Shown: positions 5,923 to 25,512, counted from the stretch's first letter. The stretch is DNA of 64,000 nucleotides from a bacterium (GCA_030153785.1 JASKLF010000005.1:64001-128000), one strand, 5' to 3'. Translations and numbers: made by a program. The notes: generated by a model not told the origin, from the letters alone.

Positions 5923-5932
5923 GGTGTCTATA

Positions 5933-6646: not shown

Positions 6647-6652
6647 AAAGGA

Positions 6653-10600: not shown

Positions 10601-11835
10601 TTAAATCCATCATAGCCATTCCGTTGAAGGTCAACGGTAGCGTTGATGGCATCCTTTTCGTTTCTGATGGTGAAGAAAAGGCCTTCACCAAATATGATGA
10701 GGAGCTACTTTATATGGTGGTTAGCCTTCTTTCCTCTTCCTTAGATAGGATAAAGTTCTTAAATTCGATTAATAAGAAGAGTCAGGTTATGGATCTTCTT
10801 TATAAGCTTTCTTTAAGGCTTTCACGGTGCTTATCTGAAGAGGAAGTTTACGATGTGGTTATTGACTTCTTGAAAGAGGTAGAGTCTTATTCCAAGATAA
10901 CCATAATGACTCTTGAGGGAGAGGAGCTCGTTCTTAAAAGGTCTTATCCCTCAAGAGGTAAGGTAGTGAGGCTAAAGCTTGGTGAGGGTATAACGGGTTG
11001 GGTTGCGCTTCACGGTGAAAGCGTTTTGGTCGGAGATGTGTCTAAGGATTCCCGCTATGTCGAATGGTTTGAGGGCATTAAAAGTGAGCTTGCCGTTCCT
11101 GTAAGGGTTGAAGGCAACATCTACGGTGTTTTGAACTTGGAGAGCGAGATAATGGGAGTCTTCACCGAAGAGGACCGATGGCTCCTGGAGGCGGTTGCCA
11201 CATCAATGGGCATCGTGCTTGAAAATATTTCTCATCTGAAAGACCCGGAGGATAATCTTTTCGCTACCACCTTGGCCCTGGCAAAGACCATCGAATATAA
11301 AGACCCATACACAAGAGGACATTGTGAGAGAGTTATGGAGTATGCCGATGCCTTGGCCCTAAGAATAGGGCTTTCGGATGTTGAAAGGAAGCGATTAAGA
11401 TATGCCTGTATATTGCACGATATAGGGAAGATCGGCGTTCCCGGGCGTATTCTTGACAAGCCCGGAAGACTTACCGATGAGGAATATGAGATAGTTAAAA
11501 GACATCCCGTTTTGGGAGAGGAGCTTCTGAAAGAGGTTCCCTTCTTGAGGGAGATATCGCTTTTAGTTCGTTGGCATCATGAAAGATGGGATGGAAGGGG
11601 ATATCCTGATGGCTTGAAGGGTTATGAGATACCCTTGGAAAGCAGAATAATGGCCATAGCGGATGCCTTTGATGCCATGACTTCAGACAGACCCTACAGA
11701 AGGGCGCTTTCAAAGGAGGAAGCCATCGCCCAGATAAGAGGCGGTATGGGAACCCAATTTGACCCTGTGTTAGCTTCGGAGTTTCTGAGTTTAATAGAGG
11801 GGGGTGAGTTTGATGAGGATAGACTTAAACAGTGA
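7660..11835 (+). CDS. Membrane-anchored sensor: extracytoplasmic domain, HAMP, about five GAF domains and an HD-GYP phosphodiesterase domain
   Basis: Two TM segments, HAMP-like region, repeated GAF motifs (GVCGWVAR..PDVTKD.RY, ELAVPI..GVLDVES, GITGWVA..GDVSKDSRY), KDPYTRGHCERV, LHDIGK, HHERWDGRGYPDG, RPYR. Confidence 0.9.
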   Translation: MTLRGRLCFILTLIFIALIAGIGYYSYTVAVKRIEDGVKEHLLSHMDAIEDLASSFSRILSFGLRSRGEKASDIIFALFGFFDALPDEGLLEKSLENLNLKGVRFYLLGEKNLQGLPLPEGISTREVLFSREGREFFSDPSGNKLLLLWKERGESGLRYLALVSLSEFSEEAEMLVSLARELLLEAFGRHLLGPRGYVQVFSSDGTLLLLRGSHILDEDDLFGSSFVKRVFDSGREVFTYDFKGERKVRAGVRLFFPEVFPEMVVISTAYLSDFTDGAVRGFILRVSVLGAILLFSTFFFINRFLRRGFFSFLTSLSEGFDNLMRGNYGYRMRKLGEKYLDELVEKFNRVGESLDLHRKEIERTYSELLKMHSDLKGSKDELEATYAQLKAYAKTLETLTEELSRSNELLRMIVRAGEELLDLSKFSDPYSRIYESLSTFYKDCTVGIYEPSGGRRVLVKKAGDGEDVISVEGSIVEEALKDIKPLFLSEGGKVRLFVPISFENKLYSIILISSEDNRLGKVDLDVISMLASIAGTAFANKGYLDSAIEKARKLGVLAQISEVLASSRSLVEDLRLIIENIANKLEYDCLEVFLKEGERLQRVASAGKISEIDYGEEGWDISKGVCGWVARYGRGVFIPDVTKDHRYVEVVKGIKGEIVVPILGDGEIYGIINLESFSELSYDDYEILSILGRQIGMALRKERLFKSVAEEARRFKTLYELSLGLSSPEALEDVLDKVCKRIEKERGYVNISVAIYDRKRVSWRLLAGRVKSKLSEETFKKLESAGGVVSKALREGAVVNVPDVRKVGYYIEVFEETLSELAVPIYVGDRIEGVLDVESPRLNDFSKEDEEFFESIANMIGLVLARERLLEDLRTQGRKLESLLHISRRLMLINDEDELYGYLCKALAESLGYKRVAYRKVDWERGIAFLKGEAGEWLGVGENIPLDRGTVAGYVAFTGDVFKSDDLDSDTRIKRKYIKGVKSIIAIPLKVNGSVDGILFVSDGEEKAFTKYDEELLYMVVSLLSSSLDRIKFLNSINKKSQVMDLLYKLSLRLSRCLSEEEVYDVVIDFLKEVESYSKITIMTLEGEELVLKRSYPSRGKVVRLKLGEGITGWVALHGESVLVGDVSKDSRYVEWFEGIKSELAVPVRVEGNIYGVLNLESEIMGVFTEEDRWLLEAVATSMGIVLENISHLKDPEDNLFATTLALAKTIEYKDPYTRGHCERVMEYADALALRIGLSDVERKRLRYACILHDIGKIGVPGRILDKPGRLTDEEYEIVKRHPVLGEELLKEVPFLREISLLVRWHHERWDGRGYPDGLKGYEIPLESRIMAIADAFDAMTSDRPYRRALSKEEAIAQIRGGMGTQFDPVLASEFLSLIEGGEFDEDRLKQ

Positions 11836-12589
11836 TATGGGGGAAAGCTTTGGAAGATATAAGCTTGGATACGATGAAGAGCTCTTAAAATACGTCTCTT
11901 CTGCAAACATAGCCTGTGGGCTTCATGCGGGTGACCCGTTGGTCATGGAACGCACGGTAAAGGAGGCCTTATCTCGAGGAGTGGGAGTTGGGGCACATCC
12001 GGGTTATCCTGACCTTCAGGGCTTTGGCAGAAGGTCCATATCTATGTCTCCTGAGGAAGTGGAGGCCTTCGTCCTGTATCAGATAGGGGCGCTTTATGCC
12101 TTTGTCAAGGCCAATGGTGGCACCTTAAGGCATGTTAAGCCTCATGGACAGCTTTATAATGACGCAAATAACGCGGCGTCCCGTGGAGACGAAAGCATTG
12201 CGAGGGCCATCGGTAATGCGGTTAAAAGATTTGACCCATCTTTAATCTTGGTTGGCCTTGCGGGAAGCAAAATGGTGGAGGTCTGGAGAAGGATGGGGCT
12301 CAAGGTGGCTGAGGAGGTCTTCGCAGATAGAGCTTATAATCCTGATGGGACCCTCGTTTCCCGTTCGAAGCCTGGCGCCGTGATAAAGGACCCCGATGAG
12401 GTTGTTAACAGGGTGATTCGTATGGTCAAAGAGAGGGAGGTAGTTGCCATAGATGGAACGGTAATAAGAAACTTGAGCTTCGATACCATATGTGTTCACG
12501 GGGATACTCCTACAGCTGTTGAGCTGGTTAAGAGGATAAGAGAGGCGCTTGATAGGGAAGGAATAGAAGTGAAGCCCATGGAAGTTTGA
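11813..12589 (+). CDS. pxpA: 5-oxoprolinase subunit A (LamB/YcsF family)
   Basis: IDLNSDMGES, SANIACGLHAGDP, GAHPGYPD, HVKPHG.LYN, FADRAY, TICVHGD. Confidence 0.93.
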   Translation: MRIDLNSDMGESFGRYKLGYDEELLKYVSSANIACGLHAGDPLVMERTVKEALSRGVGVGAHPGYPDLQGFGRRSISMSPEEVEAFVLYQIGALYAFVKANGGTLRHVKPHGQLYNDANNAASRGDESIARAIGNAVKRFDPSLILVGLAGSKMVEVWRRMGLKVAEEVFADRAYNPDGTLVSRSKPGAVIKDPDEVVNRVIRMVKEREVVAIDGTVIRNLSFDTICVHGDTPTAVELVKRIREALDREGIEVKPMEV

Positions 12590-12714: not shown

Positions 12715-12912
12715 ATGGCTACATTTGTAGATGCGTTATCGAGGATGAGCGTTAGGGTTATTGAGAATGGTAGTAGAAGGACCTATGCGTGGCGAAATGT
12801 TAAGCCCACCGTTACGGCGGACGACCTCGATGCCGTTTTAAGTGCGCTTATGTCTCTTTCCTTGTCCCAGGTTCTTGATAGGCTTTTGATTCGTCAGCAG
12901 AACATAATCTAA
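12715..12912 (+). CDS. DUF1659-like small protein
   Basis: 65 aa, RRTYAWRNVKPTVTADDL pattern; SD AAAGGGGGTG; paired with a DUF2922-like gene. Confidence 0.65.
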   Translation: MATFVDALSRMSVRVIENGSRRTYAWRNVKPTVTADDLDAVLSALMSLSLSQVLDRLLIRQQNII

Positions 12913-12930
12913 GGAAGGGGGTGATAATAG

Positions 12931-13128
12931 GTGAGGTTCTTGCACATGTATTTTTCAAACGATGCTGGAAGAAGGGTTAGGATTACCGTTAGAAATGCCC
13001 GTGAAGATGTTACCGCTGATGAAGTTTCGCAAGTTATGGACTTACTGATATCCAAGGATATTTTTTCTCCCTCCTTAACTTCTGTGATAGGTGCTGAAAT
13101 CGAGGAAAGAAGCGTAACCGAGCTTTAG
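12931..13128 (+). CDS. DUF2922-like small protein
   Basis: L.MYFSNDAGRRVRITV.NAREDVT..EV...MD.LI.KDIF...L....GAEI.ER.VTEL; SD GGGGGTG. Confidence 0.75.
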   Translation: MRFLHMYFSNDAGRRVRITVRNAREDVTADEVSQVMDLLISKDIFSPSLTSVIGAEIEERSVTEL

Positions 13129-13136
13129 TCAAGGCG

Positions 13137-13168
13137 GGGCTTGAAGGCTGCTTGCAGCCTTCAAGCCC
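13137..13168. terminator. Long near-perfect palindrome / stem-loop
   Basis: GGGCTTGAAGGCTGC-TT-GCAGCCTTCAAGCCC (15-bp arms). Confidence 0.6.
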
Positions 13169-13196
13169 TCTTAAAAATCTAAAGGAGGGTAGGTAA

Positions 13197-13349
13197 ATGA
13201 GGGTTAAGCTTTTTGGTGAGATTCCCAAGGAATTTGACGAATTAAGTGAAGTTCGAGGAGGGAAAGGGAATGAACAGGATAAAGATATCTTTAAACTTTT
13301 ATCTAAACGAGTTCGAGTGCCCTTGTTGTCAGAGGGTAAAGATAGATGA
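13197..13349 (+). CDS. Possible 50-aa small protein (not in the ORF track)
   Basis: Strong SD AAAGGAGG (13181-13188) then ATG; reads MRVKLFGEIPKEFDELSEV...; overlaps the M15 gene by 80 nt. Confidence 0.35.
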   Translation: MRVKLFGEIPKEFDELSEVRGGKGNEQDKDIFKLLSKRVRVPLLSEGKDR

Positions 13350-13683
13350 GATCTTGCTTTGGAAGCTTGAAGCTCTGAGGATAATCTGGGGTATGCCCTT
13401 AAGGGTGACGAGCGGTTACAGGTGTGAGAAGCACAACAAGGAGGTAGGCGGAGCTGAGAACTCTCTTCATCTTAGGGGAAGAGCGGTTGACATAGCTGTT
13501 AAGGAGGAGGACCAGGGAAAATTTCTAACCTTGGCGAAGCTCGTTGGCTTTAAGGTTATTCCCTATCCCAAGAGAAACTTTGTCCACTTAGATGTGGGAG
13601 GTGAAGGTCTTGGACGTATATCAGGTGATATCGAATCTAGGGTTTCCAATAGTCCTGAGCTTTTACCTTTTAACCCGTCTTGA
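13270..13683 (+). CDS. Peptidase M15A (Zn D-Ala-D-Ala carboxypeptidase / endolysin-like)
   Basis: NFYLNEFECPCC, TSGYRC..HN..VGGA.NSLHL.GRAVDI (SxHxxGxAxD), FVHLDV; no signal peptide. Confidence 0.88.
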   Translation: MNRIKISLNFYLNEFECPCCQRVKIDEILLWKLEALRIIWGMPLRVTSGYRCEKHNKEVGGAENSLHLRGRAVDIAVKEEDQGKFLTLAKLVGFKVIPYPKRNFVHLDVGGEGLGRISGDIESRVSNSPELLPFNPS

Positions 13684-13806: not shown

Positions 13807-15041
13807 AGGTAGGATTTGGTTATTAAATCTGCCATTAAGGTCGGTATTATGGCTAAGTAGAAACTTTTTATGCTGAAAATTTCGTAGGAGAGAATTGCAC
13901 AGCTAAGCGGGGATCCAACCGCTCCTGCAAGGGTTGATGTGGCGGTAAAGGCTATAAAGAAGGCCTTGTCTTCCAAGCTTACGAACCCAAGAGAGTGAAG
14001 GATAAAAAATATTCCTCCTCCCATTAATCCTCCTGTTACCAGAGAGGGACCTATCATACCTCCACTTCCTCCAGCCCCCACATAGCTTCCGTTTGAAATA
14101 ATTTTGCCTAACCCCCCTAAGATGAGGATAAAGGATAGGGAGAGAAGCTCCCCCGCGTTTGATGGTTCGATGTCTTTTAATACTATTAAATTGTCAAATC
14201 CGTGCCCCAGGATGTTGGGAAACCTTAAGAGGGACGGAAAAATGAAGACCAGGAGAACTATTATTAGGGAGGTCAGGGATGGCAAAAATGGTTTTAGGTT
14301 CTTTCCTATTTTGTTACTCAGATTGCTAACCTTTTCATAGTATTTGACGAAAAGATAAGAGGAAACTCCTCCAGTAAGCCCTATAATGGGGAGAGATAGT
14401 AACGTTTCCATGTCTAAAGCGGTATTTTCTAACTTTAAAAGATTAAATTCATTAAAATTGATGAAAGATATGAACGCCCCAATTGTGGAGGCTATCTCCA
14501 TGTATATTAGCTTCCTGATATTTTTCCTCAATCTTGAGAGAAACCTACCATAGTATAGTTCGAAGATGAATAATCCTCCTCCTATCGGGGCTCTTAAGGC
14601 AGCTCCTATGCCTGCTGACAGGGCTATAAGGGAGAAAGTCTCAGCGTGCTCCTTAAAGAGGCCGTGAGCCAGAAGATAGCCTATCCTTCCAGATGGTCCC
14701 ACAAGCCCTCCGCTGTTTCCAAGTCCAATACCTATTATTTGAGCAAAGAGTTTTAGTAAAAGGGCTTGGAATGGTTTAGGAGGTTTTTCTCCTCTTTTTA
14801 TCTCTTCTAAAGTTAAATCCAAGCCTGGTCCCCAGCCTTTAAGCCCTTTAAATTTATCGTTCCATATTAGTAAACCTGCAATTAGCGCTCCTAAGGGGGG
14901 AAAGATGAGAAAAATAACGTTCTCTCTTGCTAAGCCGAGAATTAACCCCCACAGGTCGATTATCAGAAGGAGCTTGATGTTTACTATAATTCCTATGATG
15001 ATACTTGAAAGGATTAGACGGCCTATTTCTCCAAGCATCAT
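13797..15041 (-). CDS. ClC chloride channel/transporter family protein with atypical signatures
   Basis: Many TM segments; GNSGGLVGP (GREGP equivalent), AGIGAALRAPIGG.LF..E, GGSGGMIGPSL, AGAVGSPLS. Confidence 0.8.
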   Translation of the reverse strand: MMLGEIGRLILSSIIIGIIVNIKLLLIIDLWGLILGLARENVIFLIFPPLGALIAGLLIWNDKFKGLKGWGPGLDLTLEEIKRGEKPPKPFQALLLKLFAQIIGIGLGNSGGLVGPSGRIGYLLAHGLFKEHAETFSLIALSAGIGAALRAPIGGGLFIFELYYGRFLSRLRKNIRKLIYMEIASTIGAFISFINFNEFNLLKLENTALDMETLLSLPIIGLTGGVSSYLFVKYYEKVSNLSNKIGKNLKPFLPSLTSLIIVLLVFIFPSLLRFPNILGHGFDNLIVLKDIEPSNAGELLSLSFILILGGLGKIISNGSYVGAGGSGGMIGPSLVTGGLMGGGIFFILHSLGFVSLEDKAFFIAFTATSTLAGAVGSPLSCAILSYEIFSIKSFYLAIIPTLMADLITKSYLKK

Positions 15042-15070
15042 TCTAACTCAGTTAATTTTATCATAGTTTG

Positions 15071-15099
15071 TTGACATTGGAAGCTTTCTGTGATATTCT
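15071..15099 (+). promoter_or_regulatory. sigma70 promoter of the GntR/aminomutase operon
   Basis: TTGACA(15071-15076)-N17-TATTCT with an extended TG. Confidence 0.7.
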
Positions 15100-15116
15100 T
15101 TATTTATCGAACAATT

Positions 15117-15126
15117 TTGTATACAA
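15117..15126. promoter_or_regulatory. Candidate GntR/FadR-type operator
   Basis: Perfect palindrome TTGTATACAA between the promoter and the gntR start; fits the TnGT-ACnA type consensus. Confidence 0.6.
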
Positions 15127-15137
15127 GGTGGTGTGCC

Positions 15138-15785
15138 ATGAAAGATATAGCCGAGCTTATAAAGAGAGGTATCATAATGGGTAAGTTTTTACCGGGGCAA
15201 CGGCTTAACGAGGCTGACCTGGCTGTTGAGTTTGGGGTGAGTAGGACGCCTGTAAGAGAGGCTTTAAGGGAATTGGTAGCGTGTGGTCTTCTTGAATATG
15301 AGAAGCATAAGGGGATAAGGGTGAAGAGGTATACCCTATCTGAGATAAGATACATATACGAGGTATGGTCTGAGCTGGAGGCTATAGCGGCGAGGCTATC
15401 TGCCTCTCGGATAGACGAAGCTTCCCTCCGGAGGATGAAGGATGTTCTCGATAAACAGGAAAGGCTTGTAAGGCTTGGGGAGATAAACTGGGATTACATA
15501 GAGCTTAATGATGAGTTTCATCTCGTTATTGCCAGTTCCACGCAAAATCCCTATTTGCTCAAAATGCTTTCTAACATGAGGGAGCTTATGAGACTTTACA
15601 GGCTTGGAAGCCCTGGCTGCTTGGGCAGGCTTAAGGATTCTTTTGAGGAGCATAAGAGGATCTTCGAGGCAATTAAAAATCGAGACCCGGAAGGAGCTTA
15701 TGCCTCAGCCTTTACCCATGTAAGGAATGCTTTCGCATATCTTGAAAATCGGGGGGTAAGCGAGATTGGTGTCCGAGCCTTATGA
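15138..15785 (+). CDS. GntR-family transcriptional regulator (FCD domain)
   Basis: PGQRL.E..LA.EFGVSRTPVREAL; DEFHLVI...QNPYL; EH..I..AI..RD. Confidence 0.92.
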   Translation: MKDIAELIKRGIIMGKFLPGQRLNEADLAVEFGVSRTPVREALRELVACGLLEYEKHKGIRVKRYTLSEIRYIYEVWSELEAIAARLSASRIDEASLRRMKDVLDKQERLVRLGEINWDYIELNDEFHLVIASSTQNPYLLKMLSNMRELMRLYRLGSPGCLGRLKDSFEEHKRIFEAIKNRDPEGAYASAFTHVRNAFAYLENRGVSEIGVRAL

Positions 15786-16203
15786 GAGGTTAAATAGGAG
15801 TCCTTTTTATCTTAAAAGGAGTCCTAAGGGCAGGCTTGTTGCCGTTTTGGACCTGAAGGTCATGGATAGGGGTTTAAAGCTCATTTTGCCCCGCTCGAGG
15901 GCTGTTAAGGCCTCTGAAATCCATGAAATAATAGTCACGCAGGAGGATGCTTCACCAGGGCAAACCGTGAATAACGCCGTCTATGTGGGTTTTTGGGAGG
16001 TTTTACAGGGTGGGATTTTGGAGGTCGGGGATGAGCTATGGATTGATGGAAAAAGGGTTGGCGTTTTGCTTGGCTTTGATGAGACTCACTTCCCCAATCA
16101 TATAAATATGGTGTTTAGGGGAGAGCCTCTAACGGGCAGGGAGAGGGGGCTGCCCTTAGAGGCTGAGGTTGTCTTTAGGGGGGAGGAATGGAGCGATGAG
16201 TAA
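15766..16203 (+). CDS. Conserved hypothetical beta-rich protein (recalled as DUF6917-like)
   Basis: RAV...EIHEII.T, YVGFWEV..GGIL.VGD.L.I.G..VG.LLGFDETH.PNHINMV; translationally coupled on both sides. Confidence 0.6.
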   Translation: MVSEPYERLNRSPFYLKRSPKGRLVAVLDLKVMDRGLKLILPRSRAVKASEIHEIIVTQEDASPGQTVNNAVYVGFWEVLQGGILEVGDELWIDGKRVGVLLGFDETHFPNHINMVFRGEPLTGRERGLPLEAEVVFRGEEWSDE

Positions 16204-17653
16204 CAGGTTTAAGTTCAAACTTTACAAGCATCTTCAGCTGAGCCTCCCGAAGATATACGAGGAGGCAAGGAGGGTTGCGGATGAAATAGGGATACCTAAG
16301 GAGATAAGGGGGAAGTTTGGATTAACGGGTGCCATATCCAGCTGTCATGGGCTTTTAACTCGTAAGGTGGCCAAGGTTATGGATGATGCGGCAAGGGAGG
16401 TTGTTCCTAACAAGGTTTATGACGAGGAGTTGAGGGAGATAATAAAGAGCTATTATGGAGATGAATATGATGCCTTGGCCGTTAATACCTGTGAAGCTGC
16501 CTTATGGCTGTGTTTCGATGTTTTAGTGAGTCCTCCTTTTCAGGGTAGAGGATATAACTATAGGTCCCGTTATATAGCTCCTTATGAAAGACACCTTCAT
16601 CATCAGGGTGGATACGGTAGGCCATTTCCTCCTAAGTACAAGGATATTTTTGCCGATAGGGGATGCACGGCCGGGGAGCTTGGATTTTATGGCAAGAGAC
16701 TTGAGAATGTGGATGTGGTTTATGTGCCCCTCGTGGGGGCAAGGTATGAAGTTCATGGAATAAAGTATCATCCTGTTGTATTGTTAAGCGGAGTTGACCC
16801 TAAAAGCTCGATTGAGAGAATTAAAGTTATTGCGGAGAGACACTCTCCCTTCTTGAGCGGTTTTAGCTCTCTCGCTTACGATACTCCCGGTTATGGTTAT
16901 GGGGTCAAGGATAAAGATGGAACCCCCGTTCTACAAAAGGGTATCGCCTCTTTGGCTAAAGATTTCGATGTTCCTTACATACTTGATAATGCGTGGGGAG
17001 TTCCTTTTATCGGCGCTGATTTAAGAAAGATAGGTGGAGATGTCATACTCTATAGCATGGACAAGGCGAGTGGTTCTCCCACCGTTGGGTTAATCATAGG
17101 GCGAGAGGATATCATGGTTTCTTTAAGAAGGGCCTTAGGGGTTCATGGGGATAGATGGGGGACCACGGGTTCCTACGGTAAGGCTGCTTATGTTACCTTT
17201 GACCCCGGTAAAGAGGCCCTCGTGGGATTAACGGCAGCATTAAAAGAGTTGCTCGATAACTCTAATAGGTTCATAAAGATGGTTGACAGGTTGTATGAGA
17301 TAACCATAGAGGAGTTTGGAAATATTCATCCCAACCTTAGGAAGGAGTTTAAGTTCGCTAAAAGCTATAATTCCGGTGCAGTTGAAATAAATTATGATAG
17401 GACTTGGATTGATGGTATCGGCCTTCCCATATTCTCGATAGAGGATATGTATTCTGGAACCAATATACTTCAAAGCGGTCTATCTCAAATGGGCATCATT
17501 CCAACTATAGCATATGATGCTAATATTTTCATCTCTCCCGGGCTTGGAACCACCGATGAAAATGGAGATCTCATTGAGGATCGAATGAGAATTGCGATAA
17601 GGGGATTGGTAAAGCTCATGGAGATAGTTGCAAAATACGCTGAATTGATATAA
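16196..17653 (+). CDS. PLP-dependent fold-type I enzyme, distantly SelA/DgaE-like, function unknown
   Basis: VNTCEAAL, ILDNAWG (pyridine-N Asp), YSMDKASGSPTVGLIIG (Schiff-base Lys at 17063, compare SelA SGDKLLGGP); SD GGAGG. Confidence 0.75.
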   Translation: MSNRFKFKLYKHLQLSLPKIYEEARRVADEIGIPKEIRGKFGLTGAISSCHGLLTRKVAKVMDDAAREVVPNKVYDEELREIIKSYYGDEYDALAVNTCEAALWLCFDVLVSPPFQGRGYNYRSRYIAPYERHLHHQGGYGRPFPPKYKDIFADRGCTAGELGFYGKRLENVDVVYVPLVGARYEVHGIKYHPVVLLSGVDPKSSIERIKVIAERHSPFLSGFSSLAYDTPGYGYGVKDKDGTPVLQKGIASLAKDFDVPYILDNAWGVPFIGADLRKIGGDVILYSMDKASGSPTVGLIIGREDIMVSLRRALGVHGDRWGTTGSYGKAAYVTFDPGKEALVGLTAALKELLDNSNRFIKMVDRLYEITIEEFGNIHPNLRKEFKFAKSYNSGAVEINYDRTWIDGIGLPIFSIEDMYSGTNILQSGLSQMGIIPTIAYDANIFISPGLGTTDENGDLIEDRMRIAIRGLVKLMEIVAKYAELI

Positions 17654-17690
17654 GCTTAAAGGTAACATTTCGATGGGGAGGTGCAGATAC

Positions 17691-18704
17691 ATGTTAAGGG
17701 GAAGGTTTTTGTGTATCATGGTGTTGCTTCTTTCCCTGTGTGTTGGGAGTATGGCCTTAGCTTCTGAGCTTAAGCCAGTAACTTTAACATGGGTAGCTGG
17801 TGGAGTTGGAGGAGGTTGGTATACTCAAGCGGGTGCTCTGGCTTCCTTGATTAATCAGAAAGAGCCTAAGATAACCATCAAGGTTGTTCCCGGTGGAGGA
17901 GTAGTTAACCCGATGCGCGTTTCCTCAGGCGAGGCTGACCTTGGGTGGGGTATAACCTTTGTCGATAAGATGGCTTATAAGGGACTTCAGCCTCTTTACA
18001 AAAAAGCGTTCCCGAATGTTAGAGCCATAGGTGGCTATTTTGGATATTATCATATTCATTTTATCGCCGCTGCCGAAACGGGAATTAAAACCGTTAAAGA
18101 GCTTGCTGATATGGTTAAGGCGGGTAAGCCCATAAGAATAGCTATACCCATGAAGGGGACATCTGATTTGCCTCTTGCTGAGAGGATTCTTGCTTTCTAC
18201 GGGATTAGCCTGGAGGACATTAAGAAGGCCGGTGGAGAGTATTTCCATGCGGTCTATGCCGATATGGTAAGCAACTATAAGGACCGCCATGTAGATTTCG
18301 TTATAACGCATCTTTCTTTACCTGCTGCGGCTGTAACGGAGATGTTTGTTTCCCGTGACTCCGTTCTTTTGGCCGTTTCGGATGAGTGCATAGACACGAT
18401 AAGCAAGGAGCTTGGAACCGTTCCTCGTGAGACAGGATTGTGTGTAATTCCGGCTGGAACTTATAAGGGGCAGAATGAGGATGTTCCTGCGGTTGCCACC
18501 GCTGGCGAGCTTTTGGTTAACGCCAACGTGCCTGAAGATGTGGTTTATACCATCACCAAGATACTGTGCGAGAATATTGAGGAAGTCTATGCTGCTCATC
18601 CAGCGAATAAGACTTTCGACCCCAAAACGGGGTGGAAGAACATAGCGGTTCCTCTTCACCCGGGTGCCGAGAAGTATTACAAGGAAAAGGGATACATGAA
18701 GTAG
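17691..18704 (+). CDS. TAXI-family TRAP substrate-binding protein
   Basis: Signal peptide; AGGVGGGWY, GGGVVN, PAGTYKGQ..DVP, VPLHPGAEKYYKE. Confidence 0.92.
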   Translation: MLRGRFLCIMVLLLSLCVGSMALASELKPVTLTWVAGGVGGGWYTQAGALASLINQKEPKITIKVVPGGGVVNPMRVSSGEADLGWGITFVDKMAYKGLQPLYKKAFPNVRAIGGYFGYYHIHFIAAAETGIKTVKELADMVKAGKPIRIAIPMKGTSDLPLAERILAFYGISLEDIKKAGGEYFHAVYADMVSNYKDRHVDFVITHLSLPAAAVTEMFVSRDSVLLAVSDECIDTISKELGTVPRETGLCVIPAGTYKGQNEDVPAVATAGELLVNANVPEDVVYTITKILCENIEEVYAAHPANKTFDPKTGWKNIAVPLHPGAEKYYKEKGYMK

Positions 18705-18720
18705 GGAGCTGAAGATACTC

Positions 18721-20619
18721 GTGCGGGTTCTTTCAGGTTGGCAAAGATATTTAGTGGGCGTGTGGCTTACCGCCACCGCCCTTTTTCATCTTTATACCGC
18801 TACCACGGGAGTTTTACAGCCGAGATATCAACGGGGAATTCATCTCCTTTTACTTTTGCCATTGGCTTTTTTGCTTTATCCAGCGACAAAGAAGTCTCCA
18901 CGCGATAGGTTTACCCTTTTAGACTCCCTTTTTGCGTTTCTTTCCCTTTTCCCTCCTCTTTACTTAATAGTTTTTAACGACGCATTGAACTTGAGATACG
19001 AATTTGTTGACCCTGTAACGCCCTTAGAGCTTACATTGGGTTTAATGAATATAGTTTTGCTTTTGGAAGCCATAAGGCGCGCTGTGGTTCCCGCTATGGC
19101 CTTGCTTCTATCGGTTCTTATGGGATACCTTTTCATTGCTCCTTATCTTCCGGGTGTTTTTTACGCTAAGCCATTGCCTTTGGGAAGGTTTGTAGAAATG
19201 TTTTATCTTATAACCGATAGCGGAATATATGGAGCGATAACGGGGATATCAGCTACAGTAGTGGCTCTTTTCGTTATCTTGGGTGCCTTTCTGGAAACCA
19301 CCAAGGTTGGAGATTATCTCACGAATATAGCTGCCAGGATAGCGGGAAGAGGACCAGGAGGTCCGGCGAAGATTGCCGTTTTGGCGAGCGGGCTCTTTGG
19401 TTCCATAAGCGGGGTGGCGGCAAGTAATGTATATGCCACAGGAAGCTTTACCATACCTATGATGAAAAGGTTGGGGTATAAACCGGAGTTTGCGGGAGCT
19501 GTTGAGGCGGTGGCTTCCACAGGTGGGATATTTATGCCTCCTGTGATGGGAGCTGCTGCCTTTGTTATGTCGGAGCTTACCAATATACCCTATATAAAGA
19601 TATGCGCCGCCGCTTTACTGGGAGCGATATTCTACTATTTGGCTCTGGGCCTTACCGTTCACTATGTGGCTCTCAGAGATAACCTTAAAGGGATGTCCAA
19701 GGAGGAGCTTCCCAAGTGGCGAGAGCTCGCTCGCGATTCCTACCTTCTTGCACCGGCATTTGGGTTGGTTTATTTTCTGATCAAGGGGTATTCTCCCTTT
19801 ATGGCAGCCTACTACTCGATATGGATTTCCATATTAATAAGCTTCTTTAAAAGGGAAACTTTCATGACCCCTAAGAGACTTCTCTTTTCCTTGGAGCGTG
19901 GGGCTTCAAATATGATAATAGTTGCTTTGGCCTGTGCGGGCGCTGGCATGGTAGTAAGTATTCTGACCCATACCGGTTTGGGTTTGGGACTGGCTTCAAT
20001 CATAACTACCCTTTCGAAGGGGCACCTTCTTTTGGCTCTTATATTGGTTATGATAGTTTGCCTGATTCTCGGCATGGGACTTCCAACCACACCTGCGTAT
20101 GTTATAGCGGTAACCATAGCTGGGCCTGCTTTGCTTAAGATGGGTGTAGACCCTTTAAAGGCTCATATGTTTTCCCTTTACTTCGCTAAGCTTTCCGAAG
20201 TTACACCGCCTGTTTGCGTAGCTTCCTACTGTGCAGCTTCAATTGCAGGAACGGATCCTATGAAGGTTGGCTTTGTCAGCTGGAGGCTTGCGCTTACGGG
20301 ATATCTCGTCGGATACATATTCATCTATAACGATGCTCTGCTTCTGAGGGGTAGCTTGGCAGAGATAGGATCGATCATCGTTTTTATGACGGTAATTTCT
20401 CTATCTCTGGCTATAGGTGTAGCGGGATATTTTAGAGGAAGATTAAGTTTGCTTGAAAGGTCGTTGTTCTTCGGTATTGTGATTGCTTTTACTCTCTTTT
20501 CAACCCTAAAGGGGTTTCCTCGTGAAACTGTGGCTTTGTTTGTGACCGTGTTTGCTTTGGGATATTTAGGTGTGAGTAAGTTTCTACTTAAAAAAGAAGA
20601 GGCTTCTAAGATAATTTAG
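18721..20619 (+). CDS. TRAP fused 4TM/12TM permease (TAXI type)
   Basis: GGPAKIAV..S..FGSISG, TGSFTIPMMK, EAVASTGG..MPPVMGAAAF, LGMGLPTTPAY, VTPPV. Confidence 0.93.
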   Translation: MRVLSGWQRYLVGVWLTATALFHLYTATTGVLQPRYQRGIHLLLLLPLAFLLYPATKKSPRDRFTLLDSLFAFLSLFPPLYLIVFNDALNLRYEFVDPVTPLELTLGLMNIVLLLEAIRRAVVPAMALLLSVLMGYLFIAPYLPGVFYAKPLPLGRFVEMFYLITDSGIYGAITGISATVVALFVILGAFLETTKVGDYLTNIAARIAGRGPGGPAKIAVLASGLFGSISGVAASNVYATGSFTIPMMKRLGYKPEFAGAVEAVASTGGIFMPPVMGAAAFVMSELTNIPYIKICAAALLGAIFYYLALGLTVHYVALRDNLKGMSKEELPKWRELARDSYLLAPAFGLVYFLIKGYSPFMAAYYSIWISILISFFKRETFMTPKRLLFSLERGASNMIIVALACAGAGMVVSILTHTGLGLGLASIITTLSKGHLLLALILVMIVCLILGMGLPTTPAYVIAVTIAGPALLKMGVDPLKAHMFSLYFAKLSEVTPPVCVASYCAASIAGTDPMKVGFVSWRLALTGYLVGYIFIYNDALLLRGSLAEIGSIIVFMTVISLSLAIGVAGYFRGRLSLLERSLFFGIVIAFTLFSTLKGFPRETVALFVTVFALGYLGVSKFLLKKEEASKII

Positions 20620-20650
20620 CGGTTTGAGTGGTTTCCTATGGGGTGGGGGG

Positions 20651-20890
20651 ATGGAGAGGATGTTTGAGGGAAGGATTTTAGATGCCCTTGATATTGAAGC
20701 GGTGTTTGTTGCCGAGGATGAGGAGGAGGCAAAAAGATTAGGGATTGACTTGGTTAGATCCTTTGGTCTTAAGGATGGGGATGTGGTTTTTTTAGAGAAG
20801 ATTGGGAAATTTGTTCGCGTCAGGCTTCGTGCCTATGTCTATAGACCGGGGGATAGATATTATTGGCTTTGTGGAGATGAGGCTAAATGA
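20651..20890 (+). CDS. 79-aa protein resembling the aminomutase (KamE/OraE) dimerisation domain
   Basis: LDIEAVF....EEEAKRLGIDLVRSFGLKDGDVVFLEKIG.FVRV parallels the recalled VQLSFTLP..ERAKEAA..LAKKMGL..PEVV.ME.LG; ATGA overlap with the next gene. Confidence 0.55.
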   Translation: MERMFEGRILDALDIEAVFVAEDEEEAKRLGIDLVRSFGLKDGDVVFLEKIGKFVRVRLRAYVYRPGDRYYWLCGDEAK

Positions 20891-22665
20891 AGATATTGAT
20901 GGTGCCTTTGGACCCCGTTCATGATGTTGCTTTAAAGATGCTGAAAAGGGAATTAATTGGCCGAGGATACGAGATAGTCCTTCTTCCTCCAGATATGAAG
21001 CTTGAAGAGGTAGTAGAGATATGTAAGCATGAGAGGCCTTCCTTCATAATGGTAAGTAGAACGGTAGGGTATGGAGCAAGTGAAATATTAGGCAGGTTTA
21101 TAGATCTTCTTGATGCCTCTGGAGTAAGGAAGTTTGCCCGGGTTATTGTGGGAGGAAAGGCTGTAACTAAGGAACTCGCTGCCGAACTTGGGTATGATGC
21201 GGGGTTTGGCGAAGGGACGAAGTGGGAAGATGTGGTTGCCTATATAGAGGGTAGGCCTGTTAAAAGAGGGGATGCCTTTTTTAAAAGAGAGAAGAGAGAT
21301 ATTACCAAGGGGTATAGTTACAGGATAGTTGATGAGGCTTTTTTAGACCCTTTAGATGAGATAGTAAGTCAGGTTTTAGAATGGGTTTCCGATAAAAGCT
21401 CTCCTGCGATAGAAAGGGCGAAGATAAGGGAAAGGATTCTTGCCGGTGAAGACCTTCTCGGGGAGTATTTGAAGCTTTGCGATGATTTAGTGAAGGGCTT
21501 TTATCTTAGGGGTGAAGTCCCTAAGAGGGTTAAGGTTTTAGCTGATGAGGAAGTGGATAGATTTAAGCGTTTTATAGGTGATACCCTCTTTCCTGAAGAG
21601 CCTTCCCCATTTTCGGATGGAAATCCTCTTATCTTCATCCAATATGGGACAGGCTGTCCCTTCATGGATGGGCTTCACATAAAGATATGTGAAGCGTGGG
21701 GAGCTAACGGCTTTCTTCACTTCGATCCCTCTTGGGGGGCAAGGCTTGAAGGCCTTCTTAGCGGGATACTCTCTCACGAGGAAGACGGCACGATATTGAC
21801 TCTTGAAAATTTAAAGCTTATCAAATCCCTCTTAAGCGAGTCAAGCCTTTGGAGCGTTAGAGCCCATAGGGGGTTGAATACTCCTGAAACGGTTGTCCTT
21901 GCATATGCTGCTGGTGCGGATTTGACGAAGATAAACATGGTTTATGGTTCCTTAAATGGGGGGACCGATCCTGAAAGGCTTGTAGTTGATGGGGTCTATG
22001 CGATAAAGCTTGCGTCGAAATTTAGCTTACCCTTTGATATCCCTACCAATGAGGAGTTGGGTGGCATTCCCGCTTATAAGGCCTTCGCTGGAATGCTTAT
22101 AGTAGCTCATTTGGGAGTTAAGCTCGGTGCCAAGCCCATATTAAAGCCCTTGTTCTGTTTTTCTCCCGATGTGATGATTAATGGCTATATGGATGATAAC
22201 TATGTGGATTATAATGTGGCAAAGGTTCTCGCCTTAAGGGAGATAATGGATGCCCCCATTTGGGCTGGTGAACCGATAGGCTTTATGACCCATAGCGAGG
22301 AAAGGGTTCAATCAGCGCTCACAACGGCGCTTCATGCGGGTTTGGCCAAGTCTCTTAGTCTTGATGCTGTTACCATAGCGTCGACCGATGAGGCTTATGC
22401 AAGGGGGGCGATAACCTCTGCTTCGAGGGTTGATTCTCTAAGGGGAGTCAAGGAAGCCTTCAGATTTCTTGGAAGAGCTTTAATCGAGCCTACATCTAAG
22501 GCGAAGAGCTTCAAGGAACTTATCAAAGAGGGAGTGTTGAGAACCTTAGATAGGGTCGCAAAAAGGGGAGATTTTGTGGCTTCCCTTTATGAGGGCTTAT
22601 TAGGGACGAGGGAAGAGGGAGCTACCCCTGGAAGGGCTGGGAGGGGAACGATTTTAAGATGCTAA
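20887..22665 (+). CDS. Cobalamin-dependent aminomutase-family protein: N-terminal B12-binding domain plus C-terminal KamD/OraE-like TIM barrel
   Basis: DPVHDVA (His ligand), MVSRT, IVGGK, AELGYDAGFGEG (KamE-like); barrel motifs QYGTG..MD..WGANG, GTILTLENLK, RGLNTPE, VYGSL...DPERLVVD. Confidence 0.8.
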   Translation: MKILMVPLDPVHDVALKMLKRELIGRGYEIVLLPPDMKLEEVVEICKHERPSFIMVSRTVGYGASEILGRFIDLLDASGVRKFARVIVGGKAVTKELAAELGYDAGFGEGTKWEDVVAYIEGRPVKRGDAFFKREKRDITKGYSYRIVDEAFLDPLDEIVSQVLEWVSDKSSPAIERAKIRERILAGEDLLGEYLKLCDDLVKGFYLRGEVPKRVKVLADEEVDRFKRFIGDTLFPEEPSPFSDGNPLIFIQYGTGCPFMDGLHIKICEAWGANGFLHFDPSWGARLEGLLSGILSHEEDGTILTLENLKLIKSLLSESSLWSVRAHRGLNTPETVVLAYAAGADLTKINMVYGSLNGGTDPERLVVDGVYAIKLASKFSLPFDIPTNEELGGIPAYKAFAGMLIVAHLGVKLGAKPILKPLFCFSPDVMINGYMDDNYVDYNVAKVLALREIMDAPIWAGEPIGFMTHSEERVQSALTTALHAGLAKSLSLDAVTIASTDEAYARGAITSASRVDSLRGVKEAFRFLGRALIEPTSKAKSFKELIKEGVLRTLDRVAKRGDFVASLYEGLLGTREEGATPGRAGRGTILRC

Positions 22666-23567
22666 GCTTGGGGGTATTCGGAACTGCGAAGAATACGGGA
22701 AAGACCACGGTTTTCAATACGGCTTTGAGATGCCTTTGGGGGTTCGGGCGTGTGGCGATAACCAGTATAGGCTTCGATGGCGAAGATTTGGACCACATAA
22801 CGGGGCTTCCCAAGCCCAAGGTAGTGGTTGACGAAGGTATTTGGATAGTAACAAGTAAAGGGGTAACATGGAGAGCCACCGCGAGGCTTGAGTTAGTTAG
22901 GGGTCTCGACGTTGATACTCCCTTTGGCTCTTTGGAAATATATAAGGCTAAGTCGCCTGGTAGAGTTCCACTCGTGGGGCCTAACCGGGCTGATGACTTG
23001 CTTAAAGTGAAGGAAATTCTTGCAGGTTACGGGGTTGAGCTCTTTCTGGTTGACGGGGCTATCAATCGCATGATTCCCTTTCAATACGTGGATCTTGTTA
23101 TCCTCGCAACGGGAGCGTCTCGAAGCACCAACATTGAAGAGCTACTTTTGGAAACGGAAGCCATTGTTAAAGCTCTTTTCCTACCGAAGGGAGAAATCGG
23201 CAAGCTTGAGCTCCTTGAGGGACCTATAAGCTTTGAAGTTTTGAAAAGCTATGAGGGTAGGGGGATTTTGGTAGAATCACCTTTCCACGTGCTTTTACTC
23301 ATTGATTACAGGAATTTGCTTGACCTGCTAAGGAAGGTAGAGGTCTTCGTCTTAAGGAAACCTGAGCTTTTGTGTATTACTCTGAACCCCACTTACCCTG
23401 AAAGGAGGATAGAGGGCTTTAGGCTTTCCATGATAGATTTCTCTTCCCTTAAAAGCTTTCTCTCCAAGAAGCTCGGCGTTCCCTGTATAGATGTTTTGAG
23501 GGAAGAGGATGAGCTCTGTGAACTTTTAAATGCGAGGGTGAGAAGAGGATGGGCGTTTACGACTTGA
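22659..23567 (+). CDS. KamB-like aminomutase reactivase subunit (P-loop protein)
   Basis: LGVFGTAKNTGKTT, ITSIGFDGE..D..TGLPKP, LVDGAINR, VILATGAS, NPTYP. Confidence 0.7.
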   Translation: MLSLGVFGTAKNTGKTTVFNTALRCLWGFGRVAITSIGFDGEDLDHITGLPKPKVVVDEGIWIVTSKGVTWRATARLELVRGLDVDTPFGSLEIYKAKSPGRVPLVGPNRADDLLKVKEILAGYGVELFLVDGAINRMIPFQYVDLVILATGASRSTNIEELLLETEAIVKALFLPKGEIGKLELLEGPISFEVLKSYEGRGILVESPFHVLLLIDYRNLLDLLRKVEVFVLRKPELLCITLNPTYPERRIEGFRLSMIDFSSLKSFLSKKLGVPCIDVLREEDELCELLNARVRRGWAFTT

Positions 23568-24697
23568 TTATCATAGGAGGAGGAATTATAGGGTGTTCTA
23601 TAGCTTATCACGTCTCCCTTTTTAAAAAGTGGAGAATCTTGATTATCGAAAAGAATGGCATAGCTGGAGGGGCTTCTGGCTCTTGCGATGGAATTTTGTC
23701 TATTCTCTCGAAAAAGGGCGGTATACATCTTGAACTTGCCTTGGAGAGCCTTTCCATGATTAAAAGCTTGTCGAAAGAGCTTCCTATCGATATCGAGTTT
23801 CAGGAAACTCCGGGGATGGTAGTAATAGAAGATGAGGGTTATCTTCCCTTTATGGAGAGATTCGTGAATGAACAGAGGAAAAACACCGACCTTAAGATAG
23901 ATTTCTTAAATCCTAAGGAAGCTTTGCGTTTTGAGCCTCTATTGTCCACGAGAATTGCGGGGGTTTTAAGGTCTCCTCAGAATGGTCAGGTTAATCCGAT
24001 ATATCTTACTTATGCCTTCTTTGAGGGTGCCCGCTTAAGGGGGGTAGAATTGAGAAGGGGGGAAGAGGTTCTCGCTGTTGAAAGGAAGGGCTTCGGCGGT
24101 TTTAGGGTTTTAACTTCTCACGGTAGTTATGAGTCTGAAAGGGTAGTCCTTTCTGCTGGTTCTTGGTCTCCGCTTATATCCTCTTCTATAGGTATAGAGC
24201 TTCCTATAAAGCCGAGGAGAGGACAGCTCCTTGTTACCGAACCTATTGCAAGAGCCATAAATCACACCGTGCTTTCGAGCAGATATATAGTGGCCAAATA
24301 TGGGGTTGATACGGGTGGTAAGGAGGGGTTGGCCTTAGAGCAAACCCATCACGGTGCCTTTTTAATAGGGGCAACAAGAGAGTTTGTGGGCTACGATAAA
24401 AGCGTAACTTCCTCCGCTTTCGAAAGGCTTTCCAAAAATGCTGTAGAGGCCTTCCCCTTTTTGCGTGGCTTGAGGGTTATAAGGGCTTTTGCGGGATTAA
24501 GACCCTGGACGCCTGATGGCTTACCGATAATAGATAACATAGATGGTCTCTTTTTGGCTTGTGGGCACGAGGGAGATGGGATATGCCTTTCTGCCGTAAC
24601 GGGTAAGCTTTTAAGCGAGCTTATAGTTTATGGTAAGGCTTCATTTGATGTATCTCCCTTTTCCTTAAGCAGATTTAATACCTCTTCAGCTTTGTAG
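23549..24697 (+). CDS. FAD-dependent oxidoreductase, D-amino-acid/glycine oxidase (DAO) family
   Basis: IIGGGIIG.SIAY, GGASG, SAGSWS, PRRGQ, AGLRPWTPDGLPII, CGHEGDG. Confidence 0.9.
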   Translation: MGVYDLIIIGGGIIGCSIAYHVSLFKKWRILIIEKNGIAGGASGSCDGILSILSKKGGIHLELALESLSMIKSLSKELPIDIEFQETPGMVVIEDEGYLPFMERFVNEQRKNTDLKIDFLNPKEALRFEPLLSTRIAGVLRSPQNGQVNPIYLTYAFFEGARLRGVELRRGEEVLAVERKGFGGFRVLTSHGSYESERVVLSAGSWSPLISSSIGIELPIKPRRGQLLVTEPIARAINHTVLSSRYIVAKYGVDTGGKEGLALEQTHHGAFLIGATREFVGYDKSVTSSAFERLSKNAVEAFPFLRGLRVIRAFAGLRPWTPDGLPIIDNIDGLFLACGHEGDGICLSAVTGKLLSELIVYGKASFDVSPFSLSRFNTSSAL

Positions 24698-25512
24698 GAG
24701 CTTCTTACCAGAGGGGCGCAGAAGGCCAGTTTGAAGCCAAGGGAGTAGGCGATCTCTTCATATTCTTTAAATTCCTCGGGAGTTATGAAACGCTCGACAG
24801 GTAGATTTTCTTTAGTAGGCTGAAGATATTGACCAATGGTTATGATATCACAGTTCGCCTCTCTTAAATCTTCCATAACTTCTATAACTTCCTCCTTATT
24901 CTCGCCGAGACCTACCATTATCCCTGATTTAGTTATTATGCTTGGGTTTAAATCCTTAACCTTCCTCAAGAGGTTAAGGGATCTTTCGTAGTTGGCCATC
25001 GGCCTGACACGAGGGTATAGCCTTTTTATCGTTTCGAGGTTATGATTGATCACCGTGGGAAGCGCGTTGACCACCTTTGCGAGGGCTTCCTCGCTTCCCT
25101 TAAAGTCGGGTATCAGTACCTCTATTCCCTTTACGCTTTCTATCTTTTTTACCTCCCTTATCGTGCTTTCAAAGACGCTTGCTCCACCATCTTCAAGGTC
25201 GTCTCTCGTTACGGAGGTTATAACCACATATTTTAAGCGAAATTTTTTAACCGCCTCAGCCACTCTAAAGGGCTCTTCCTCATCGATGGGTAAGGGATTT
25301 CCCTTTGTTACCGCACAAAACCCGCAATTTCTCGTGCATATATCCCCCAGGATCATGAAGGTTGCCGTCCCTCTTGAGAAACACTCTCCCAAGTTTGGGC
25401 ATCTTGCTTCCTCACAAACCGTATGAAGTCCACATCCCCTTAGTATTTTCCTTGTGGATTCCGCTTTTCCTCCTTTAGGGAGGTTTGACCTTATCCAGGA
25501 TGGCTTTCTCAT
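24628..25512 (-). CDS. lipA: Lipoyl synthase
   Basis: LHTVCEEARCPNLGEC, CTRNCGFC, HNLET, KSGIMVGLGE, GQYLQP, PLVRSSY. Confidence 0.96.
   Translation of the reverse strand: MRKPSWIRSNLPKGGKAESTRKILRGCGLHTVCEEARCPNLGECFSRGTATFMILGDICTRNCGFCAVTKGNPLPIDEEEPFRVAEAVKKFRLKYVVITSVTRDDLEDGGASVFESTIREVKKIESVKGIEVLIPDFKGSEEALAKVVNALPTVINHNLETIKRLYPRVRPMANYERSLNLLRKVKDLNPSIITKSGIMVGLGENKEEVIEVMEDLREANCDIITIGQYLQPTKENLPVERFITPEEFKEYEEIAYSLGFKLAFCAPLVRSSYKAEEVLNLLKEKGDTSNEALP

Follow-up and report, generated by a model that had tools for sequence, protein, structure and literature searches.

Only about a dozen isomerase reactions that depend on coenzyme B12 (adenosylcobalamin, AdoCbl) are known, and just two of them use pyridoxal phosphate (PLP). 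The closest described systems are lysine 5,6-aminomutase (KamDE), D-ornithine 4,5-aminomutase (OraSE) and glutamate mutase. In KamE and OraE the PLP lysine lies 11 residues after the cobalt histidine. OraE His182 binds the substrate carboxylate (PMC3958899), and PMC4413051 describes OraE Glu338 as a helper of Co-C bond homolysis. Here, we analyze a stretch of 64,000 nucleotides from a bacterial genome (GCA_030153785.1, JASKLF010000005.1:64001-128000; hereafter the window), in which a 592-residue mutase is encoded within a row of nine genes. These nine genes likely specify an undescribed amino-acid rearrangement-then-deamination route in anaerobic bacteria. Judged from sequence and predicted fold, the 592-residue enzyme works like a class III/class I AdoCbl mutase, yet stands outside KamDE and OraSE. 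A first-pass annotation of the window had proposed a dedicated uptake and catabolic operon around an atypical aminomutase. What endures of this proposal is a conserved, undescribed AdoCbl radical-mutase module related to KamDE and OraE but separate from the lysine and ornithine pathways, with a transporter and a regulator, that is most likely catabolic.

In library scans the B12-binding domain (residues 10-112) is the sole match in the 592-residue protein. When 8,000 candidates were scored, 1,049 proved to be relatives. The best 120 of these share 53-80% identity with it and come from Pseudothermotoga, Atribacterota and thermophilic Bacillota, and those that carry a name are mostly labelled generically as cobalamin-binding; cultured carriers are Pseudothermotoga thermarum and Tepidanaerobacter syntrophicus. 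A profile search of 1.84 billion representatives returned 33 matches at E <= 1e-30, one of them full length, and beyond the family it found B12 domains only. In the AlphaFold model (predicted local distance difference test, pLDDT, 88.9) a Rossmann domain at the N-terminus is followed by a linker of helices and, from residue 248, by a barrel of eight strands. Foldseek places KamD, OraE and glutamate mutase at the top ranks (E 3e-18). The best VIA-align superposition is that on KamD 8t0v_A (Z 33.6, root-mean-square deviation (rmsd) 3.6, 387 aligned residues, 16% identity), followed by glutamate mutase 1cb7_B (Z 27.6, rmsd 3.4, 344 aligned) and OraE 3kow_A (Z 27.4, rmsd 2.9, 349 aligned); acyl-CoA mutases reach Z 17-19.5 and methyltransferase barrels about 14-15. 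The B12 domain is nearest to that of KamE (profile probability 99%). Against the KamDE/OraSE family hidden Markov models (HMMs) the protein stays below cut-off, with 49 of 280 bits for NF052385 and 23 of 800 for NF040743. By these comparisons the parts of KamDE appear re-cut, with the B12 domain fused N-terminally to the barrel and the dimerisation domain set free. The 79-residue protein encoded just upstream, for which library scans gave no family, is likely this detached KamE-type N-terminal dimerisation domain. We had also considered it as an analogue of OraS and dropped this in favour of the KamE assignment; no OraS-like gene occurs in the loci.

A B12 domain of this kind could in principle be a methyltransferase-type corrinoid carrier, with the barrel acting as the methyltransferase. 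It does match MtgC/MtbC-type corrinoid proteins weakly, with a displaced histidine motif, but the match to KamE is stronger, the barrel scores Z 27-34 against radical mutases and about 14 against MeTr/MetH barrels, and a KamB-like partner is nearly always adjacent. The corrinoid-protein HMM TIGR02370 gives 27 of 215 bits, below its cut-off. We find this explanation hardly credible.

We audited the active site in 212 aligned full-length homologues, all of them unique and sharing 49-100% identity with the query, and mapped residues by profile alignment. Reference sequences for KamD, KamE and OraE were taken from genomes and their identities confirmed by NCBIfam. The PLP contacts are those listed in PMC3958899 and the role of Glu338 is that given in PMC4413051; residue types of the KamD reference agree with the numbering in the former, and for OraE and KamE the numbering was assigned through shared motifs and is offset. 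The cobalt histidine H12, which marks a base-off/His-on B12 domain, is kept in 212 of 212 sequences; the GG motif is kept too. AdoCbl radical mutases carry a ribose-binding glutamate after strand 8 (E338, E330 or E370); E502 directly follows the model strand 494-497 and aligns, in an alignment that is weak, to the OraE glutamate motif. Because the cobalt histidine is kept and a glutamate is placed like the homolysis-assisting one, we infer with good support that the enzyme would use AdoCbl radical chemistry.

The PLP site has fared differently. The loop that carries the aldimine lysine (KamE K144, OraE K629) is deleted: the span from H12 to Gly27 is 16 residues in 212/212, and position 23, eleven residues after the histidine, is Leu, Phe or Ile in every one of the 212. 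With the contacts taken from the source above, R184 of the phosphate cup is replaced by D280, the N1 contact S238 by R328 and R268 by Gly or Ala at position 358 (each 212/212), and the phosphate loop G187-Q188-S189 reads W283-G-A. New invariant residues have appeared in turn (Q252, C257, H264, H278, R325, H327, K348 and D384). Thus, the canonical PLP anchor and pocket are, as far as the alignment tells, replaced in all or nearly all 212 homologues, and the label B12/PLP aminomutase of the first-pass annotation is not supported as it stands. PLP lysine, PLP pocket and family scores all fail, which places the enzyme outside KamDE and OraSE. The conserved family comprises more than 1,000 sequence clusters; with its radical machinery kept and its active site rebuilt, it probably carries out an undescribed reaction.

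Several points weigh against a mutase that has given up PLP. The mapping alignments are weak and of low diversity (KamD with a probability of 57% locally and 86% globally, OraE 8%), and at strand 8 the alignment to KamD loses register, for which reason E502 was placed by way of OraE and the order of strands in the model. The cobalt motif is displaced by one residue (DPVHD), with the aspartate at -3 instead of -2. The PLP-stacking tyrosine is kept as Y353 (KamD Y263, OraE Y187) in 212/212, and K348, K17, K398 and K446 are nearly invariant; therefore a new mode of PLP binding is conceivable. The enzyme would then be a true AdoCbl/PLP aminomutase whose Schiff-base lysine had moved from the B12 domain into the barrel, where K348, or K17, could be the relocated anchor and R325/H327/R328 a new phosphate or ring site. 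Its substrate would be a shorter or different diamino acid, as in a 2,4-diaminobutyrate 3,4-aminomutase that completes the series of lysine 5,6 and ornithine 4,5, and the PLP lyase would afterwards remove the beta-amino group. The invariance of K348 at the end of barrel strand 4, the kept tyrosine and an aminomutase as nearest fold speak for it. N388 may match the PLP-binding asparagine, in an ambiguous register, and W459, which aligns where KamD has K370, may shorten the substrate pocket. An arginine at the pyridine N1 has a precedent in alanine racemase. However, D280 and W283 fill the phosphate cup and R268 is lost, and the OraE residue at the position of K348 binds the substrate carboxylate (PMC3958899), a role that a lysine could take without PLP. 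We therefore regard relocation of PLP as unlikely and prefer a mutase without the canonical PLP site.

What surrounds the mutase gene elsewhere was surveyed in 96 loci, the window included, after the window's own duplicates L015 and L018 had been dropped; the metagenome loci among them are the best 80 of 217. The loci form 50 groups at 85% identity, and same-strand neighbours within 9 kb were counted. These counts are lower bounds, as many contigs are short, and one split gene makes two groups. The 79-residue protein is a neighbour in 48 groups, the KamB-like protein in 42, the PLP enzyme in 31, DUF6917 in 24 and a GidA-like flavoprotein in 21, against 5 for the TAXI permease and 4 each for the DAO flavoprotein, DapF and diaminopimelate (DAP) dehydrogenase. 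In 20 longer regions, drawn from 19 of 30 carrier genomes, DUF6917, PLP enzyme, small subunit and KamB each occur 19 times, the GidA-like gene 18, the FCD regulator 16 and Rid 13 times. Of 301 related genomes, 30 have the mutase, 36 the PLP enzyme and 34 DUF6917; every one of the 30 mutase carriers has both partners. Two more genomes have a mutase locus without the PLP gene, but carry that gene on a separate contig. The conserved core consists of DUF6917, PLP enzyme, 79-residue protein, mutase and KamB. The conserved cassette that the first-pass annotation expected thus exists as these five genes and not as the set of nine.

The TAXI and DAO genes belong to the pathway in some lineages and are replaceable elsewhere, where their slots are usually held by a GidA-like flavoprotein, a Rid protein and a different transporter. 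The TAXI substrate-binding protein (SBP) of the window is 76-78% identical to the SBPs of two Pseudothermotoga-type mutase operons; solved structures gave distant matches to it (best E 6e-26) that do not identify its ligand. The window DAO is 38-44% identical to mutase-adjoining DAOs of other phyla, compared with 29-31% to its two closest paralogues in its own genome. The usual transporter-like gene, in place of TAXI, encodes a membrane protein of about 460 residues (12 of the 20 longer loci, for example L021:7491-8867 and L192:16372-17772) with no Pfam or NCBIfam match. The GidA/TrmFO-like FAD protein (L087:7055-8341 and orthologues) has four clustered invariant cysteines and often adjoins a PRK05802-type electron-transfer subunit. 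It occurs in 27 of the 30 mutase genomes, also in 62 of 271 genomes without mutase, and is absent from all three mutase carriers of the window's family. The FCD regulator of 16 of 20 Bacillota-type loci is of a different type from that of the window. A long operon in Pseudothermotoga sp. U03pept (L144 and L001) holds eight of the window's gene types, all except GntR. Its additional genes encode RidA, a racemase-like protein, 2Fe-2S/SoxA/BFD subunits, a GidA-like protein, DAP dehydrogenase, DapF and a D-serine dehydratase/aldolase-like protein. In G008, from the window's own family, the mutase is split over two contig ends (L142, L143), and a different TAXI pair (SBP 41% identical) lies after kamB and before the orthologous DAO gene. 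A DAO/TAXI cluster beside DUF6917 in G491 was set aside as support: its DAO is 32% identical to the window DAO and equally to an unrelated paralogue, its SBP is 28-29% identical, and the cluster is analogous at most.

When tested against Pfam and NCBIfam cut-offs, GntR/FCD, TAXI SBP, fused TAXI permease, B12-binding domain and DAO come out above threshold, as the first-pass annotation had labelled them, and its small unknown protein turns out to be DUF6917. Its SelA-like label holds weakly. The PLP enzyme gives 30.7 bits with TIGR01437 (E 1.5e-7, cut-off 385) and 14 of 600 with NF047797, the library scan returns a weak class-V/SelA-like signal, and the family profile matches DgaE 7lc0 at E 8e-5. 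The aspartate and lysine typical of fold-type-I PLP enzymes (D264 and K290) are invariant across 28 sequences. We predict from these matches a beta-eliminating lyase of the SelA/DgaE group. Oxidative deamination, which the first-pass annotation had taken as the main exit, is not supported in this role, since the obligate partner of the mutase is this PLP enzyme. The DUF6917 alignment has four invariant residues, E54, D105, H108 and H112, and a sequence search of the PDB gave no meaningful match. Among 7,999 candidates for longer forms there is one DUF6917-Rid fusion (P0279, 305 residues), on a single contig and possibly an artefact. The KamB-like protein, a label that likewise falls short of its threshold, scores 173 bits against a cut-off of 210 and spans model positions 2-178 of 326. 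By their NCBIfam names KamB and KamC form a cofactor reactivase, and the KamB-like protein is likely to serve as one here without KamC: KamC was found in 0 of 95 loci counted and 0 of 20 longer regions, and above cut-off in 0 of 5 genomes, which gave MutS-sized matches only.

According to PMC3565831, enamines released by PLP dehydratases are turned into keto acids by Rid proteins. Because of the fixed pairing of the mutase with a distantly DgaE-like PLP enzyme, the frequent Rid genes, the importers and the FCD regulators, we propose a scheme of uptake, rearrangement, elimination and hydrolysis. Racemase/epimerase-like genes and D-amino-acid enzymes, which like transporters and an FCD regulator often adjoin the mutase, also speak for it. 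The TAXI system would import the substrate, which the FCD regulator would sense through the palindrome in front of the operon. The 592-residue protein and its 79-residue subunit would bind AdoCbl base-off/His-on via H12, and E502 would assist Co-C homolysis, as conservation and fold suggest. A radical 1,2-shift, in the simplest case a glutamate-mutase-type skeleton or heteroatom shift, would then turn a gamma-substituted alpha-amino acid into its beta-substituted isomer, with the substrate held by the new invariant pocket R325/H327/R328/K348/D280. The fold-type-I PLP enzyme, probably together with DUF6917, would beta-eliminate the isomer to an enamine, and a Rid protein encoded elsewhere in the genome would hydrolyse this to the 2-oxo acid. 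The DAO flavoprotein might oxidise an upstream or side-stream amino compound, a role that the GidA-like flavoprotein seems to fill in most other carriers, and the KamB-like ATPase would swap out damaged cobalamin. In the simplest chemistry that calls for both enzymes, an alpha-amino acid has its leaving group shifted from C-gamma to C-beta. Candidate substrates, each a long shot, are 2,4-diaminobutyrate (giving 2,3-diaminobutyrate), homoserine (giving threonine) and 4-hydroxyglutamate. The sequence of glutamate mutase and methylaspartase follows the same logic of a mutase followed by ammonia elimination. It is from genes, folds, residue changes and co-inheritance that we infer all of this chemistry, its step order and its direction. 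We give about an even chance to a catabolic route in which an AdoCbl radical mutase without canonical PLP site is followed by PLP-dependent beta-elimination to a 2-oxo acid and ammonia.

Some findings count against this route. The best PDB profile match of the PLP enzyme is O-acetylhomoserine sulfhydrylase (E 1e-5) and not DgaE, and every such match spans the PLP-lysine stretch only. The 30 genomes in which mutase and partners co-occur are related, so they are not independent, and 6 of the 36 PLP-enzyme carriers have no mutase match. The operon itself is without a Rid gene, and among the neighbouring genes none would provide one of the candidate substrates named above or selects among them. 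The genomes with the PLP enzyme alone gave no clue to a substrate: two resemble operons minus the mutase block, one gene lies at a contig edge and the others are solitary. In L202 and L203 (from G445 and G448) DUF6917 or Rid, the PLP enzyme and the GidA-like gene are kept, and the block of small subunit, mutase and KamB is missing.

The module could also be biosynthetic or tailoring, making an unusual amino acid, an osmolyte or a modified nucleoside. SelA-type PLP enzymes can carry out beta-replacement, and the common flavoprotein partner is GidA/TrmFO-like, which would suit this explanation. However, importers, FCD regulator, Rid and dehydrogenase subunits typify catabolic operons, carriers are patchily distributed (in the phylum of the window 3 of 201 genomes, all three within the window's family, and 30 of 301 in another), and the three mutase carriers of that family lack the GidA-like gene. 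We consider a biosynthetic role quite improbable. A pathway specific for diaminopimelate or lanthionine from cell walls might be suspected, as in Pseudothermotoga and some Atribacterota-like loci the operon includes genes for DapF and DAP dehydrogenase, each of which exceeds its NCBIfam cut-off. Each is found in just 4 of the 50 groups; of 20 additional loci, one has DapF and none DAP dehydrogenase, and neither was found in the window's genome. On this rarity and absence we rejected diaminopimelate as the general substrate, and a pathway dedicated to such compounds seems very improbable. The route of rearrangement and elimination set out above remains our preferred reading.

Elsewhere in the window's genome, which is 95.7% complete, kamA, kamD and oraE were not found, nor was any PF09043 match, in agreement with the first-pass annotation that partners of the lysine and ornithine pathways are missing. 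A Kce-family gene on another contig was rejected as a pathway partner, as a relative without mutase has it too. The GidA-like gene was not found either; RidA and a 2Fe-2S/SoxA/BFD cluster lie on other contigs. An Asp/Glu-racemase-like gene (G000:C11:56109-56774), about 7 kb before the window and 42% identical to the copy in the Pseudothermotoga operon, is possibly a displaced pathway member. The window begins inside a gene that, by its motifs, we take to be CobO/BtuR-like. The first-pass annotation saw in it a possible supplier of AdoCbl, which is not borne out: some 15 kb separate it from the operon, the related loci that were examined do not have it next to the mutase genes, and B12 has other clients in the genome.

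The operon has the tight co-directional layout that had been described for it (Table 1), with nine open reading frames (ORFs) on the + strand between 15138 and 24697, all overlaps or spacings below 40 nt (-20, -8, 37, 16, 31, -4, -7 and -19 nt along the operon) and the G+C content of the remaining window. The reported TTGACA promoter and palindrome are present. The promoter scores 10 of 12, the joint best across 14800-25000, where 15 promoter-like sites were found against 13.8 expected, so that the match by itself is at chance level. We credit it because of its position and because two relatives, G002 and G008, also have the -35 hexamer and the palindrome ahead of their orthologous regulator. 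The palindrome TTGTATACAA is identical in G002 and has one mismatch in G008, with TTGACA in both, and it is likely the operator to which the GntR/FCD regulator would bind. The 1.52-Mb genome holds 2 copies; the other (G000:C11:5495) lies within an ORF of an unrelated region and is probably there by chance. At the far end a convergent gene, presumably lipoyl-synthase-like (24628-25512, - strand), overlaps the 3' end of the DAO gene by 70 nt, and comparable convergent overlaps occur in G002 and G008. Further upstream, window positions 5888-12589 hold two carboxyltransferase-domain genes and a LamB/PxpA-like gene, which we take to be a 5-oxoprolinase set, with a 1,391-residue ORF between them and a TRAP transporter before. 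At 12715-13683 follow small DUF1659-like, DUF2922 and peptidase-M15 genes in a row that, we assume, resembles a mobile-element remnant.

Table 1. Features of the mutase operon; positions are counted from the first nucleotide of the window.
Feature	Position	Strand	Evidence
Sigma-70-type promoter TTGACA-17-TATTCT, extended TG upstream	15071..15099	+	-35 hexamer recurs before ortholog in G002 and G008
Perfect 10-bp palindrome TTGTATACAA, candidate GntR/FCD operator	15117..15126	.	Conserved in relatives
GntR/FCD regulator, 215 aa	15138..15785	+	Pfam FCD and GntR above cut-off
DUF6917 protein, 145 aa, core member	15766..16203	+	Pfam E 7e-42
Fold-type-I PLP enzyme, 485 aa	16196..17653	+	Distantly SelA/DgaE-like; D264 and K290 invariant; model pLDDT 84
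TAXI-TRAP substrate-binding protein, 337 aa, accessory	17691..18704	+	TIGR02122 above cut-off; alternative ATG 17673
TAXI-TRAP fused permease, 632 aa, accessory	18721..20619	+	TIGR02123 above cut-off; 73% identical in L001
79-aa protein, putative small subunit	20651..20890	+	Profile match to KamE N-terminus, probability 62%, E 7e-5
592-aa mutase: N-terminal B12-binding domain (H12), helical linker, KamD-like TIM barrel	20887..22665	+	Profile, fold and alignment evidence
K348 codon, invariant barrel lysine at OraE His182 position	21928..21930	+	212/212; ends model strand 346-348
E502 codon, after barrel strand 8	22390..22392	+	Placed like OraE Glu338; 212/212
KamB-like P-loop protein, 302 aa	22659..23567	+	NF052386 E 7e-51, below cut-off
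DAO-family flavoprotein, 382 aa, amino-acid dehydrogenase beta-subunit type, accessory	23549..24697	+	Pfam DAO E 2e-67

Our literature search, with most subscription journals and supplements outside its scope, gave no account of the mutase family and nothing on DUF6917. We lean towards seeing here a coenzyme-B12 radical enzyme of a new class, in which the scaffold of an aminomutase has lost its PLP tether, uses a barrel lysine or an electrostatic pocket for an undescribed rearrangement and is hard-wired to an orphan PLP lyase and DUF6917, so defining an amino-acid fermentation pathway in Thermotogota, Atribacterota, Bacillota and the window's lineage. If this is true, it would show an evolutionary interconversion of aminomutases and PLP-free mutases, give functions to three orphan families (the PLP enzyme, DUF6917 and the GidA-like flavoprotein) and add a nitrogen-recycling route to anaerobic, often thermophilic communities. 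The compact operon is a practical test case, with the TAXI protein and GntR as two handles for ligand screening of the substrate. The window contributes an operon variant that has TAXI and DAO but no GidA-like gene, an operator that is conserved, and the alternative of K348.

Compared with the known systems, the window mutase shares with KamDE (PDB 1xrs, 8t0v, 9q1a; D-lysine/L-beta-lysine 5,6-aminomutase) a KamD-like barrel, KamE-like B12 and dimerisation domains, the His-on ligand, the stacking tyrosine and a KamB-like neighbour. It differs in its re-cut domains, the deleted PLP-lysine loop, the replaced phosphate and N1 contacts, a barrel identity of 14-16% and its obligate partners, the PLP enzyme and DUF6917, in a genome without KamC, KamA and KamD. 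OraSE (3kow) likewise has barrel and B12 domain in a single chain, and its Glu338 after strand 8 may correspond to E502, which aligns to it weakly; its domain order is opposite, its Lys629 has no equivalent in the window mutase, OraS has no counterpart gene in the loci, and the OraE substrate residues E81 and H182 become Q252 and K348. Glutamate mutase MutE/MutS, which acts with methylaspartate ammonia-lyase (1cb7, 6h9e), is alike in its PLP-free AdoCbl barrel (Z 27.6) and in an Arg/His at the end of strand 3. In contrast to this system, the window mutase is only 11-13% identical, has a B12 domain nearer to KamE than to MutS, is partnered by a PLP enzyme and has a helper of the KamB and not the MutL type. 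The window's PLP enzyme, finally, keeps the fold-type-I PLP motif with Asp and Lys of the SelA-related DgaE (D-glucosaminate-6-phosphate ammonia-lyase, 7lc0), but is about 110 residues longer and was seen next to neither phosphotransferase system (PTS) nor KDGP aldolase genes.

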